A DNA stretch of 28,737 bases from an uncultured Candidatus Saccharibacteria bacterium (GTDB lineage Bacteria > Patescibacteriota > Minisyncoccia > UBA6257 > JAUSGH01). Below, one piece after another: positions 19,268 to 22,887 of this stretch (the stretch's first letter is position 1; each line of letters starts with the position of its first letter). The notes beneath the pieces were generated by a model. That model was given only the letters and a program-made list of their open reading frames with translations, was not told where the DNA came from and did not search any database. Where the stretch lies: assembly GCA_964359435.1 (NCBI GenBank), contig CAYHSY010000002.1, forward strand, positions 1 to 28,737, read 5' to 3'. The translations under genes and the position numbers were made by a program.

Positions 19268-20020
19268 GTGGAAGCCCCCAAACCTTGGAAGCTCCGATTT
19301 TCCCTGCGCCAGCTCTTCGTGTTCGTCGTTTTCCTGTCCTTCATTCTTTGGGCCATTTTCCAGCCCGAAAAGTACGAGCGCGAAGAAGTCGTTTCAACCT
19401 ACGGCTATCCGCCCGAATACCGCATCAAGCCCATCGACGAACAGATCGCCATTCTCAAACAGCATTTCCCGAATCTTATATCCGTGGATATATCAGTGGC
19501 TTCGAAGCCTTTGCCTGCGGGCGCCGAAGGATACTTCGCCATCCCGAGGTGGCAAAAGATCGCCCCGACCTATGCGCAGGCAGTGGACAAGGTTTTGGAT
19601 GCTATAATGCAAAGACGCGTGTTATGGGGTAGTGCCGCCGGACCTGTCCTGGAAACCGCCAAAAAATCCGACAGCATTTCGCAGATTTCACGAAACCAAA
19701 ACACCCCCAACATCCTCATCGTGCCCGCTCAATTCGGCCTCCGCCATCGCGGCCGGTCATTTAGGCGAGTCCGTGCCGTGATGGGCTATCGCGAGTTCGG
19801 ACTCGGCGCTTACGAAGTCAGCATAATGCTTCTTGCACATCCAGAAAGGTTGGGATGGTCTAGTGGTTTGTTATGGATCACTTGCGCCGGTGACGCCGAT
19901 GGCGGCTTCTCGGTCGCGCCGCTCTTCAGCTTCGGCGGCGGCGAGGTCGGGTTCGGCGCCGTCTGGTGCGGCCGCGCCCACGAGTACTGCGGTTCCGCGT
20001 CGGCCTTCCTCTCGCAGTAA
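19268..20020 (+). CDS. Probable DGR target protein (N-terminal TM anchor, C-terminal variable region)
   Basis: TM helix at aa 13-31; YGYPPEY..KPIDEQIAILKQHFP, PAQFGLRHRGRS, EFGLGAYEV, HPERL; ends APLFSFGGGEVGFGAVWCGRAHEYCGSASAFLSQ; 3' end has 8 A in 137 nt. Family resemblance to CPR DGR targets is from recall. Confidence 0.75.
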   Translation: MEAPKPWKLRFSLRQLFVFVVFLSFILWAIFQPEKYEREEVVSTYGYPPEYRIKPIDEQIAILKQHFPNLISVDISVASKPLPAGAEGYFAIPRWQKIAPTYAQAVDKVLDAIMQRRVLWGSAAGPVLETAKKSDSISQISRNQNTPNILIVPAQFGLRHRGRSFRRVRAVMGYREFGLGAYEVSIMLLAHPERLGWSSGLLWITCAGDADGGFSVAPLFSFGGGEVGFGAVWCGRAHEYCGSASAFLSQ

Positions 20021-20118: not shown

Positions 20119-20148
20119 TACAGGCTAATTCGCACGAATTAGCCTGTA
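20119..20148. repeat. Hyphenated palindrome, copy 1 (14-2-14)
   Basis: TACAGGCTAATTCG-CA-CGAATTAGCCTGTA. Confidence 0.9.
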
Positions 20149-20176
20149 TTGTTTTTTATATAAGTTATGTTATAAT
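20149..20176 (+). promoter_or_regulatory. Sigma70 promoter for tgt
   Basis: TTGTTT-16 nt-TATAAT with TGn extension; ATG 7 nt downstream; abuts palindrome copy 1. Confidence 0.55.
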
Positions 20177-20183
20177 GTAGCCA

Positions 20184-21362
20184 ATGATTCAATTCAAAAT
20201 CCTTAAAAAATCCCAAAAATCACGGGCTCGTCTCGGTGTCTTGAAAACGCCTCATGGTGAAATAGAAACTCCGGCTTTGGTTCCGGTTGCGACGCAGGCG
20301 ACGGTCAAGGCGCTTTCGCCGGAGGATTTATCGAAAACTAAAACGCAGTTGGTTATATCGAATACTTTTCATCTCAATTTGAAGCCAGGTGAGAAAATCG
20401 TGAAACGGCACGGCGGGCTTCATAAATTCGCCAAGCTTAACCTGCCCATTATGACCGACTCCGGCGGCTATCAGGTTTTTAGTTTGGGTTTTGGCCGCGA
20501 CCTCCAAATCGGTAAAGTCTCAAAAATAGAAAGTTATTCCCCGAGCCATGCCTACCGGCAGGCAGGCCTGTCGAGGGGACACTCTATTCTAAAAGGCACC
20601 CAGCCCAAACTTTTAAAAATCAAAGACAACGGCGTGTTGTTCCGGTCGCCCATAGACGGCCGCGAGATTTTTATCGGTCCCCGGGAATCCATAAAGATCC
20701 AGGAAGAATTGGGCGCGGACATAATCTTTGCTTTCGACGAATGCCCGCCGCCAAATGCCGATTATGAATATATGCGCAAGTCCGTCGAGACGACTGGTCG
20801 CTGGGCGCGCGAGTGCCTTCAATATAAAAAGTCCAAACAAGCTCTCTATGGCATCGTGCAAGGCGGCCGTTTTAAAGATCTGCGCGAATCCTCCGCCAAG
20901 TTTATCGGCGCGCTTCCTTTTGACGGCTTTGGTATCGGCGGAGAGTTCGGCGCGGATAAGTATCAAATGAAACGGATGCTCGCCCTCGTTGTGGATAATT
21001 TACCCGAATCCAAGCCGCGCCATTTGCTCGGCATCGGCGGCGTAGCCGATTTGCGGCCCATTATCCAATCCGGTATGGACACCTTTGACTGCACTATCCC
21101 GACGCATTACGCCCGCCACGGCATCGCTTTTACTTCATCGGGCAGAGTGGATCTCAATAAATCTGTTCATCTTAAGGATAAAAGTCCGGTTGATAAAAAA
21201 TGCGCTTGCGAAGTTTGCGCTACTCATTCCCGCGGCTACCTCTCGCACCTTATCCGTGCGCGCGAAATCACCCCGCTCCGACTCCTCACTATCCACAACC
21301 TTTTTTACTTCAACTCGTTGGTCGAAAATTTGCGCGCTCACCTCAAATCCGGTAAATTATAA
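20184..21362 (+). CDS. tgt: tRNA-guanine transglycosylase
   Basis: GEIETPALVPVAT, MTDSGGYQVFSLG, FDEC, GIVQGG, DTFDCTIPT, CACEVC..H Zn site. Confidence 0.95.
   Translation: MIQFKILKKSQKSRARLGVLKTPHGEIETPALVPVATQATVKALSPEDLSKTKTQLVISNTFHLNLKPGEKIVKRHGGLHKFAKLNLPIMTDSGGYQVFSLGFGRDLQIGKVSKIESYSPSHAYRQAGLSRGHSILKGTQPKLLKIKDNGVLFRSPIDGREIFIGPRESIKIQEELGADIIFAFDECPPPNADYEYMRKSVETTGRWARECLQYKKSKQALYGIVQGGRFKDLRESSAKFIGALPFDGFGIGGEFGADKYQMKRMLALVVDNLPESKPRHLLGIGGVADLRPIIQSGMDTFDCTIPTHYARHGIAFTSSGRVDLNKSVHLKDKSPVDKKCACEVCATHSRGYLSHLIRAREITPLRLLTIHNLFYFNSLVENLRAHLKSGKL
20538..20579. repeat. Nested palindromic element within the tgt reading frame
   Basis: CATGCCTACCGGCAGGCAGG (18/20 match to the perfect palindrome CCTGCCTGCCGGCAGGCAGG) inside TCCCC...GGGGA arms; encodes SPSHAYRQAGLSRG. 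Confidence 0.7.
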
Positions 21363-21373
21363 ACTACTCCGGC

Positions 21374-21405
21374 TTATCGGCTAATTCGCACGAATTAGCC
21401 GATAA
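21374..21405. repeat. Hyphenated palindrome, copy 2 (15-2-15)
   Basis: TTATCGGCTAATTCG-CA-CGAATTAGCCGATAA. Confidence 0.9.
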
Positions 21406-21451
21406 AACTGCCGGGATAATTTTAAGAAAAATAAACTATAAATACGGCAAT

Positions 21452-21703
21452 ATGGAAAAAATTTTAAAGGCCTTGGCGAACAAGAGGCGATTGGCAATAT
21501 CGAGATATTTAAAAAGTCGGGAGGAGGCCCCAGTGGGAGATATCGCTAAAGAAATCGGCTTATCGTTTCGCTCAACCTCTAGGCATCTCGCCATACTTCG
21601 CGCGGCGGATATTTTAGAAAAAGAGCAGCGCAGCCTCTCGGTATTTTACAGGTTATCCAAAGACTTGAAACCCATTGCCCGCTATATAATAAAACTGTTA
21701 TAA
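21452..21703 (+). CDS. ArsR/SmtB-family winged-HTH regulator
   Basis: ILKALANKRRLAI..VGDIAKEIGLSFRSTSRHLAILRAADIL..VFYRL; no Cys and only one His, so the classic metal sites are absent. Confidence 0.85.
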   Translation: MEKILKALANKRRLAISRYLKSREEAPVGDIAKEIGLSFRSTSRHLAILRAADILEKEQRSLSVFYRLSKDLKPIARYIIKLL

Positions 21704-21715
21704 AATTTATTCTTA

Positions 21716-21745
21716 TATCGGCTAATTCGCACGAATTAGCCGATA
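21716..21745. repeat. Hyphenated palindrome, copy 3 (14-2-14)
   Basis: TATCGGCTAATTCG-CA-CGAATTAGCCGATA; 30 bp identical to copy 2. Confidence 0.9.
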
Positions 21746-21777
21746 GTTGGTAATTGATTATTTGGTAAAAAATTAAA

Positions 21778-22887
21778 ATGCCAAAAAATAATTTTGAAAA
21801 AAATTTGGTGCGTTATGACTATGATTTGCCAGAGGAGCTTATTGCTAAAGAGCCCGCTCATCCGCGCGATGCCGCGCGCCTTTTGGTCTATAACAGAAAA
21901 ACCGGCAAGGCAAAAGATGATATTTTTAGAAATATTATCCAGTATTTGCCGCCGAAATCCGTTTTGGTTTTCAATGAGACCAAGGTTATCCCGGCGCGGC
22001 TCGCGGTTAGAAAAAAATCGGGTGGCGTAGTTAGGGTATTATTTGTGGGAATCGAGGGGGGATTGATAAAAGTTTTGTCGCCGAAAAAGTTGAAAATCGG
22101 GGAGTGTTTGGCCGCATCCGTCGCTGTTTATTTTACGGTTGCAAAATCGAAAGATAAATTTTGGTTTTTGCGGCCGTCGTTTCCGGTCAAAGATGTTTAT
22201 AAAATTTTGGAAAAATACGGTGAGATGCCTATCCCGCCCTATATCAAAAATTCGCCTCTCACCGGAGTGGAATTGAAAAAAGAATATCAAACGGTTTTTG
22301 CGCGCCGGTCCGGTTCCGTCGCCGCGCCGACGGCGGCCCTGCATTTCACTAAAAATTTAATGGCGAAGATTAAAAAAGCGGGACATGAAATCGTTTTCGT
22401 CACGCTTCACGTCAATCTCGGAACTTTCTTGCCCGTAACAATCGAAAATTTGGAAACCGGAAAACTGCATGAGGAATATTATGAAATTTCTAAAACAGCG
22501 GCTCGCAAATTAAACCGGGCCAAAAAATCCGGAAGAGCCATTATCGCCGTGGGCACAACTTCGGCGAGAACTCTGGAATCTTCGCTTGGTCGGGATAAAA
22601 AAATCAAAAAACTTTCCGGTCTCACCTCGCTTTTTATCCACGAAAACCTTATACCCCTCATTCGGCCGAATGAGGGGTATAAGGAGGGATATAAGGGGGA
22701 GTTGGTTGATAGTGGAGGATTTGGGTTTGTTGATGGTTTGGTGACCAATTTTCATGTGCCGCGTTCCAGCTTGATGATGCTTGTCGCCGCGCTCATCGGC
22801 CGTCAAAAAATTTTAGAACTTTATAAGCACGCCATCAAAAACCGTTATCGCTTCTTCTCCTTCGGCGACGGGATGTTGATTTTATAA
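21778..22887 (+). CDS. queA: S-adenosylmethionine:tRNA ribosyltransferase-isomerase
   Basis: YDYDLPEELIA, LVFNETKVIPARL, MPIPPYI, YQTVFA..GSVAAPTAALHF, TLHVNLGTF, VGTTSARTLES, TNFHVPRSSL, YRFFSFGDGM. Confidence 0.96.
   Translation: MPKNNFEKNLVRYDYDLPEELIAKEPAHPRDAARLLVYNRKTGKAKDDIFRNIIQYLPPKSVLVFNETKVIPARLAVRKKSGGVVRVLFVGIEGGLIKVLSPKKLKIGECLAASVAVYFTVAKSKDKFWFLRPSFPVKDVYKILEKYGEMPIPPYIKNSPLTGVELKKEYQTVFARRSGSVAAPTAALHFTKNLMAKIKKAGHEIVFVTLHVNLGTFLPVTIENLETGKLHEEYYEISKTAARKLNRAKKSGRAIIAVGTTSARTLESSLGRDKKIKKLSGLTSLFIHENLIPLIRPNEGYKEGYKGELVDSGGFGFVDGLVTNFHVPRSSLMMLVAALIGRQKILELYKHAIKNRYRFFSFGDGMLIL
22647..22684. repeat. Perfect 38-bp palindrome within the queA reading frame
   Basis: CCTTATACCCCTCATTCGG/CCGAATGAGGGGTATAAGG, followed by a partial duplication AGGGATATAAGG. 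Confidence 0.9.

Follow-up and report, generated by a model that had tools for sequence, protein, structure and literature searches.

What is the role of three copies of one palindrome that surround a small regulator-like gene and two genes of queuosine tRNA modification in an uncultured Candidatus Saccharibacteria bacterium? The question is raised by a stretch of 28,737 nucleotides (contig CAYHSY010000002.1, positions 1 to 28,737; hereafter the window), in which tgt, encoding queuine tRNA-ribosyltransferase of 392 aa (20184..21362, plus strand; PF01702, E 8.5e-123), is followed on the same strand by arsR, encoding an 83-aa ArsR/SmtB-family winged-helix protein (21452..21703; HTH_20/HTH_5), and by queA, encoding S-adenosylmethionine:tRNA ribosyltransferase-isomerase of 369 aa (21778..22887; PF02547, E 3.6e-110). 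Copy 1 of the palindrome (TACA GGCTAATTCG CA CGAATTAGCC TGTA) is located 5′ of tgt at 20119..20148, copy 2 between tgt and arsR at 21374..21405, and copy 3 between arsR and queA at 21716..21745. As described in an initial annotation made from the letters alone, the core GGCTAATTCG-CA-CGAATTAGCC occurs three times in the same orientation (20123-20144, 21379-21400, and 21720-21741), with CA on the plus strand each time; its 22 nt are GGCTAATTCGCACGAATTAGCC in all the copies. While this 10-2-10 core is identical, perfect symmetry extends to 14-2-14, 15-2-15, and 14-2-14 in copies 1, 2, and 3, respectively, through outer arms that differ and are yet symmetric: TACA...TGTA, TTATC...GATAA, and TATC...GATA. 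Copies 2 and 3 have 30 identical bases in common and form a direct repeat around arsR. The core is found nowhere else in the window, since allowing up to three mismatches returns the same three matches, and shuffled windows gave 0.01 matches on average, with none of 100 reaching three. Indeed, in the whole assembly (G000; 847,134 bases in 87 contigs, rated 100% complete) the core has three copies at up to two mismatches, all of them at this locus, and its reversed pattern has none.

Probably, the three palindromes are cognate operators of the 83-aa protein encoded between copies 2 and 3. As judged from sequence comparison, an operator function is the most likely one because the gene and the site are linked across genomes, the site brackets the gene, its distance from the promoter is conserved, and a matrix made from other genomes recognizes the window copies. 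This matrix, based on 141 sites of other genomes, scores three places above 12 bits in the 847-kb genome, which are the three window copies (20-21, 23-25, and 27-30 bits for copies 1, 2, and 3, respectively), and none in the reversed genome.

By sequence and predicted fold, the 83-aa protein is a member of the ArsR/SmtB family. It clears the cut-off of the curated ArsR/SmtB model NF033788 (66.5 bits, cut-off 55) and has further ArsR-type matches to PF12840 (37.1 bits, cut-off 27) and PF01022 (28.3 bits, cut-off 22). A profile of the protein and six orthologs retrieves HlyU (E 4.7e-11), CzrA, NolR, and BigR from the solved structures. An AlphaFold2 model built from 31 relatives (predicted local distance difference test, 95; predicted template modeling score, 0.82) shows the layout α1-α2-α3-αR-β1-β2-α5, with helices at residues 2-23, 28-35, 39-51, and 74-82 and strands at 25-27, 55-60, and 63-68, and its top fold matches in the PDB are HlyU, SqrR, NolR, AntR, CadC, and CzrA (TMq 0.71-0.77). 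The protein is Cys-less, as the initial annotation stated, and has only one His (H45), which is invariant among the relatives and lies in the recognition helix; no invariant or nearly invariant Cys is found among the 31 relatives. Ligands of ArsR/SmtB sensors are located at an α3N Cys pair, an α5 Asp/His/Glu cluster, or a redox Cys pair, and none of these sets is present in the 83-aa protein. Because there is no Cys and the sole His is in the recognition helix, the protein appears to be devoid of the sensing sites of metal and thiol sensors. Any signal that it may receive must be something other than a metal coordinated by Cys or His. Public data contain at least 518 related protein clusters at E ≤ 1e-10, with a typical length of 86 aa and generic names only.

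Linkage between the gene and the site was followed in 87 loci, namely the window, six relatives, and 80 GTDB loci of Parcubacteria/Patescibacteria from many candidate phyla. Orthologs in the 86 non-window loci are 52-67% identical, and genes of the foreign loci were called simply as the longest open reading frames (ORFs). Of the 87 loci, 76 have an exact ATTCG-NN-CGAAT in the 300 bp before the gene start and 67 have one in the 300 bp after the stop; both flanks carry it in 61 loci, and at least one flank does in 82. The two flanking centers are 292-450 bp apart with a median of 339 (n = 61), comparable to the 341 bp between copies 2 and 3, and the 3′ copy often overlaps the stop codon, like ...CTAATTCG, whose TAA is the stop. 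The spacer is common to both flanks in 55 of the 61 loci. Furthermore, the gene and the core co-occur among 61 related genomes: eight genomes with an ortholog (E ≤ 1e-10) hold 3-14 cores (mean 7.4), while the means are 0.8 in 10 genomes with a weak match and 0.42 in 43 without a match, against 0.6-0.75 for the reversed-pattern control (Mann-Whitney p = 1.5e-6, with related genomes being non-independent samples). In each of five other genomes, 600-800 kb in size, three to five exact cores are present, two of them on the flanks of arsR.

More distant members keep the same arrangement. A 36%-identical paralog in genome G038 and a 37%-identical homolog in G009 have the core on both flanks. The two paralogs of G038 have their own arms around the shared core, TCTAATTCG..CGAATAGGTAAAT and TTGTACCATTCG..CGAATGGTACAA, and more copies of each flavor are found elsewhere in this genome; G009 has a third arm flavor in five copies. 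Sites other than the flanking pair are also found, like copy 1, 45-85 bp before the start of the upstream neighbor (L033, L034, L046, L047, and L064), and one site in L051 is located 50 bp before uvrA.

Alignment of the flanks gave a directional consensus, ...ATTCTCTAATTCG CG CGAATAGGCGAATA, which follows the orientation of the gene on either side; the core was given by the search pattern. Because the median perfect arm across the family is 5 nt and the 10 nt after the site contain only 1.8-2.0 T on average, a long hairpin is not a conserved feature of the family, nor is an intrinsic terminator. The promoter geometry is more regular. When a −10 box is defined as at least five of six matches to TATAAT, often with TGn, it starts at +28 to +31 from the center of the upstream site in 30 of 76 loci, 18 of them at +29; when the opposite direction is read, one of 76 has it. 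Start codons are frequently found at +41 to +43. These two distances imply a leaderless transcript with an operator that would be centered near −41.5 and cover the −35 region.

The window promoters can be read in a similar manner by eye. A putative −10 box of tgt, TATAAT (20171..20176), starts at +38 from the center of copy 1 and ends 7 nt 5′ of the ATG at 20184 (+51), suggesting a leaderless or near-leaderless start. A putative extended −10 of queA, TGgTAAAAA (21763..21771), has its hexamer starting at +36 from the center of copy 3, with the ATG at +48. For arsR, candidates are GATAAT at +26 or TATAAA at +48 from copy 2, whose center is 62.5 nt 5′ of the ATG (+63). No Shine-Dalgarno sequence is seen by eye at tgt, arsR, or queA. 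Each window palindrome ends at or just 5′ of the presumed −35 position; the statement in the initial annotation that copy 1 abuts the tgt −35 box is plausible in that a poor TTGTTT (20149-20154) lies directly 3′ of the palindrome, and weak in that a promoter scan did not return it. As a separate observation, −10 boxes are located 6-9 nt 5′ of start codons without a Shine-Dalgarno sequence in the window (20171-20186, 21437-21454, and 21763-21780) and in many related loci, which suggests that leaderless transcripts are widespread in these organisms.

From these features, the following mechanism can be proposed. The 83-aa protein presumably binds as a homodimer. The module of the family, compact and self-contained, would consist of a 5′ operator about 41.5 bp before the leaderless start, over the gene's own −35 region, the gene itself, and a second operator at or just past the stop codon. 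Negative autoregulation at the 5′ site is most likely, and the 3′ site would most likely be a second operator at which transcription leaving or entering the gene is blocked or attenuated, as by a roadblock. Alternatively, the 3′ and 5′ sites may be joined by looping; lambdoid immunity regions have flanking operators that do so. The distances between the flanking sites have no periodicity of 10, 10.5, or 11 bp (Rayleigh p = 0.87, 0.99, and 0.30, respectively; n = 61), which neither supports nor excludes looping. In the genus of the window, the module lies between tgt and queA, and a third copy is situated directly upstream of the tgt promoter. Thus, tgt, arsR, and queA all begin 32-46 bp past a copy of the site, and they are probably repressed by the same protein.

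The connection to queuosine is narrow. Among the 87 loci, tgt and queA flank arsR in two, the window and a locus of the same genus, G001, and other neighbors are very varied. In G001, the site between arsR and queA is kept, the ATG of queA is at +44, and a second copy of the same palindrome is inside queA. In G005, which belongs to the same family and another genus, tgt adjoins queA without arsR, the spacer of 140 bp has a different repeat and no ATTCG palindrome, and the arsR ortholog adjoins uvrC on another contig. Control of the queuosine genes would thus be a wiring of this genus and not a property of the family. The initial annotation had proposed an ArsR-type repressor of queuosine tRNA modification; co-occurrence, bracket, geometry, and matrix favor its first half, that the palindrome is an operator of the adjacent ArsR-type protein, and its second half would hold at the level of the genus at most. 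Beside this, about 14 extra residues are seen by eye in tgt around 20548-20570 compared with the G001 tgt, and the extra stretch includes a one-mismatch copy of a genome repeat, CCTGCCTGCCGGCAGGCAGG, present at C5:21190 and C17:16497.

Several observations weigh against the operator reading, and many of them concern dispersal of the palindrome. The −10 candidates of the window, at +36/+38 for queA and tgt and +26/+48 for arsR, are off the family mode of +29. In G001, arsR is located directly 3′ of tgt without a spacer, and there is no site before the tgt-arsR pair. The perfect arms, 13-15 nt long in the window and as long as 28 nt at other places, exceed the expected need of a small dimer. Covariation between the protein and its site was also less firm than it looked: Ser or Ala as the first residue of the recognition helix goes with symmetric or asymmetric operators at 21:5 versus 12:39 (Fisher p = 2e-6, 77 loci), but the association comes down to three independent pairs on supported branches and is not robust, so it is suggestive only. 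As for the 3′ site, a −10 box at +28 to +31 follows the downstream copy in just four of 67 loci, and the next gene frequently begins 20-35 nt past its center. The idea of the 3′ copy as a duplicate promoter-operator was rejected on the former count, and because this geometry is rare and the next gene is close, the 3′ copy is better described, on present sequence comparison, as an intercistronic site in what would be an operon of arsR and its payload than as a second promoter. A replication-terminus function (Tus/RTP-like) was considered as well and dropped, since most neighbors run in the direction of the gene (same strand for 70 of 79 upstream and for 67 of 86 downstream). Exact matches to the 22-mer of the window come from many samples and amount to at least 128 metagenome stretches. 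Among the matches listed, 79 loci were fetched, of which 17 have an ArsR-like gene within 85 bp and 62 have none, and tgt or queA is present in none of them. Also among the matches listed, 85 distinct copies have perfect arms of 10-24 nt and are located in co-directional spacers (36), convergent spacers (21), divergent spacers (10), ORFs (8), or at contig edges (10); convergent spacers are enriched about twofold (21/68 versus 37/230, p = 0.009), and at least six T in the 9 nt after the stem are found in five of the 85. A search for hidden ArsR genes beside the dispersed 22-mers covered 46 adjacent small ORFs, and ArsR-type Pfam matches were obtained only at loci that tblastn had already flagged. 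In most cases, the metagenome 22-mer is central to a longer perfect palindrome whose outer arms vary, and on some contigs three to five copies lie within a few kb. Furthermore, the genome of the window has a second palindrome family with the same core, TATACCCCTCATTCG-GC-CGAATGAGGGGTATA, in five copies and with no second regulator. The copies of this family (TATACCCCTCATTCGGCCGAATGAGGGGTATA) are at C22:11831, C63:3863, C69:1671, C71:901, and position 22647 of the window, and three of them are in-frame within ORFs: queA, a Mur-ligase-like gene, and a 477-aa ORF. The queA copy (22647..22684) is a perfect in-frame palindrome of 38 nt with a GC spacer around the ATTCG-NN-CGAAT core, and it scores below 12 bits in the matrix scan. 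At the same codons and in the same inserted loop, queA of G001 (L007 541-572) has another palindrome around this core, in which ATT-CGN-NCG-AAT encodes I-R-P/A-N, while queA of G005 has no such loop. Core palindromes are also found inside a Mur ligase gene of G009 (L151) and in-frame in MnmA and a glycosyltransferase gene. The in-frame copies of the five-copy family resemble insertions like those of Rickettsia palindromic elements (RPE).

These features define the main rival, which is compatible with protein binding and to which we give a rather small, though real, share of the probability: a repetitive extragenic palindromic (REP)-like structural element, that is, a duplicating palindrome acting as a DNA or RNA hairpin at 3′-ends, as a boundary, or as a stabilizer of mRNA. 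The ArsR-like gene would then be its home locus or partner, as REP-associated tyrosine transposases (RAYT) are with REPs, and not a classical regulator of tgt and queA. Besides dispersal, convergent enrichment, in-frame copies, and the spacer common to both flanks, near-identity of the copies within one genome over 22-32 nt speaks for it. So do strong RNA hairpins predicted at all three window copies (−20.2, −29.7, and −19.6 kcal/mol for copies 1, 2, and 3; z −5.3 to −7.4). Of the hairpin and U-tract that make an intrinsic terminator, the T-run is present only at copy 1, where the palindrome followed by TTGTTTTTT gave a terminator-like match in a scan; this copy looks like an intrinsic terminator for an upstream ORF of unknown family (19268-20020) and may double as an operator. 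No Rfam family was matched at E ≤ 1 beyond chance microRNA-like matches to the queA palindrome. A true RAYT exists in the same genome, too: an RAYT-like Y1 transposase gene (PF01797) at C48:245-1032 (L121) is flanked by three copies of TTTCGGAAGTC(G/C)GACTTCCGAAA, which is a classical REP-RAYT arrangement in a genome of the Candidate Phyla Radiation (CPR). However, the gene flanked at the window locus is ArsR-type and not Y1/HUH, the RAYT palindrome on C48 differs, and the winged-helix protein has no catalytic domain to mobilize DNA. T-runs are also rare after the dispersed stems listed above, and most sites of the family, with their short arms, form no useful hairpin, yet the core and the directional flanks are conserved. 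The fixed distance to the −10 box also argues against it, and with a leaderless start the upstream copies are outside the gene's own transcript. Where the gene is absent, the motif is at background, which fits a protein-dependent element. The initial annotation had regarded the palindrome as possibly a REP-like element clustered locally; this does not hold in the present genome, whose only three copies are all here, and is partly borne out by the dispersal of the 22-mer elsewhere and by the related palindromes in-frame in genes. As background to these families, 97 perfect palindromes (arms of at least 10 nt, 0-4 unpaired in the center) are counted in the 847-kb genome, comprising several multi-copy families as well as A/T-flanked terminator-type hairpins.

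Two further explanations are less likely. The same sites could serve an activator, with the opposite sign of regulation: the protein would bind at about −41.5 in its own promoter in a class II-like manner and recruit RNA polymerase, and at tgt and queA it would sit just upstream of the −35 region. That the operator is about 41.5 bp before a leaderless start in many loci, with its right half replacing the −35 region, that the window sites end just 5′ of the presumed −35 positions, and that HlyU, the closest solved relative, is named a transcription activator in its PDB entries, all agree with this. Nevertheless, most characterized ArsR/SmtB proteins are repressors, many of the promoters have TGn-extended, near-consensus −10 boxes that should need no activation, and an activator would have no evident use for copies that are intercistronic, convergent, or intragenic, so we regard it as decidedly improbable. 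Still less credence is due to a recombination cassette, in which arsR would have been inserted, or could be excised, between the two 30-bp direct repeats, as the initial annotation had also suggested. The identity and direct orientation of copies 2 and 3, the occurrence of the site-gene-site unit in many genomic contexts but between tgt and queA only in this genus, and the tgt-queA pair of G005 without the unit would all suit a mobile cassette. On the other hand, no join across arsR is seen in the Logan contigs of X1, X3, X4, and X5, at a depth of about 4-5 and in contigs that drop rare variants, and error-free contigs bridge the repeats (copies 2 and 3 in X1 and in X3, copy 3 in X4, and copy 2 in X5). 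The G005 spacer, with its different repeat, is not tgt-[one repeat]-queA and bears no single-repeat scar. No recombinase family was found among 160 immediate-neighbor proteins scanned against Pfam. The two copies also differ in how they relate to the gene, and each relation is conserved: the 5′ copy goes with a promoter, and the 3′ copy overlaps the stop codon. Because the contigs give a negative, if weak, result, G005 has no scar, and the two copies have distinct roles, recombination is not needed and the repeats are better explained as two operators. Insertion or excision between them is therefore left unsupported rather than refuted, as relatives keep arsR together with the repeats.

Families of DNA repair, replication, and nucleotide sanitation account for 32 of 160 immediate neighbors of the module; among genes drawn at random from these loci, neighbors excluded, they are 10 of 135. 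Upstream, they make up 18 of 75: UvrC (four), UvrB (three), PIF1, AlkD-like, DnaX, and PD-(D/E)XK (two each), ExoX, RNase H, and Ham1. Downstream, they are 14 of 85: PIF1 and NUDIX (three each), MgsA (two), DinB, MPG, AlkD-like, TatD, Xth-like, and GIY-YIG. The enrichment has Fisher p values of 0.0014 for a strict set and 0.02 for a lenient one, with a gene set that was picked post hoc and related genomes that are not independent. The repair theme is absent from the wider site sets of G038, G005, and G009, and complementarity with LexA is not significant (LexA in 2 of 8 ortholog genomes versus 21 of 53 others, p = 0.70). The repair neighborhood is accordingly a lead and not a finding.

The bracketing design is not limited to the ArsR-type gene. 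Two PaaX-like genes of the same genome (PF20803; a winged helix plus a Cas2-like domain), at C3:18314-19055 (L119) and C41:5754-6482 (L120), each have a long perfect palindrome of their own on both flanks. Over this genome and related ones (relatives, L152-L173), 22 PaaX-like loci were compared: seven have a bracket of a shared palindrome, eight have one-sided or unshared palindromes, and seven have none at the threshold used. These cases may point to a general design rule rather than a one-off. A wider and tentative proposal, which as a whole is more likely to fail than to stand, is a portable bracketed controller that is general in Patescibacteria. Its protein would bind a private palindrome on either flank of the leaderless gene that encodes it, and also a few intercistronic, convergent, and even intragenic copies, serving as a protein-dependent transcription boundary or roadblock in long co-directional arrays with few terminators. 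Its palindromes would spread as short RPE-like insertions, its preference for repair genes (uvrA/B/C, PIF1, AlkD-like, DinB, MgsA, and NUDIX) would make it a LexA-independent controller of stress or damage, and the genus of the window would have redirected it to queuosine tRNA modification.

Comparison with known systems shows both likeness and difference. Operators of ArsR/SmtB proteins are hyphenated inverted repeats of roughly 12-2-12, and the 10-2-10 to 15-2-15 sites of the window match this type in architecture. With the ArsR/SmtB repressors, such as SmtB, CzrA, and CadC and the non-metal HlyU, NolR, BigR, and SqrR, the window system shares the family model, the fold, the inverted repeat with a 2-bp spacer, and the position of the gene beside its own site, as expected for autoregulation. 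It differs from them in that the protein is only 83 aa, with no Cys, no α5 His/Asp/Glu cluster, and hence no known sensing site. A second operator would lie at the 3′ end of the gene, the start appears to be leaderless with the operator at about −41.5, and exact-match targets are few, often only the gene's own two flanks. REP/RAYT systems are similar in having a gene flanked by a palindrome that also occurs in spacers and gene ends in near-identical copies; the window gene is, however, not Y1/HUH, and the eight ortholog-bearing relatives have 3-14 copies per genome rather than hundreds. RPE are known to insert in-frame into protein-coding genes, and core palindromes in queA, the Mur-ligase-like gene, MnmA, and the glycosyltransferase gene do likewise, but the window-type elements are much shorter (about 30-40 nt), are present in few copies, and are tied to the gene of a DNA-binding protein. 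The closest layout is that of CapS in the CapK/CapS “controller of adjacent pathways.” CapS, a winged-helix repressor, has one palindromic site within its promoter and another that separates its gene from the operon downstream; it regulates itself and the downstream genes and belongs to a module found beside varied payloads, immune operons (EMBO J 2026, PMC13373217). The two-site layout is thus the same as in the window, although CapS carries a STAS sensor domain and has a partner kinase, whereas the window protein consists of a winged helix alone and no partner of it is seen, and the CapS sites are TTAA half-sites at two different spacings, unlike those of the window. Among the papers listed in literature searches on ArsR proteins, transcription-factor motifs, and operators in Patescibacteria/CPR, none described such a motif or module.

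Transcription control is barely understood in Patescibacteria, which are not growable alone. The present finding offers a testable pair of regulator and operator with a defined motif and promoter geometry and with at least 518 related clusters. Its layout, a regulator gene bracketed by its own site, is unusual and is seen again around genes of another, unrelated regulator family of these genomes. For the genus of the window, the finding predicts control of tgt and queA instead of constitutive expression. Should the 3′ and intercistronic copies serve as roadblocks, this would explain how long co-directional gene arrays are partitioned in these tiny genomes.

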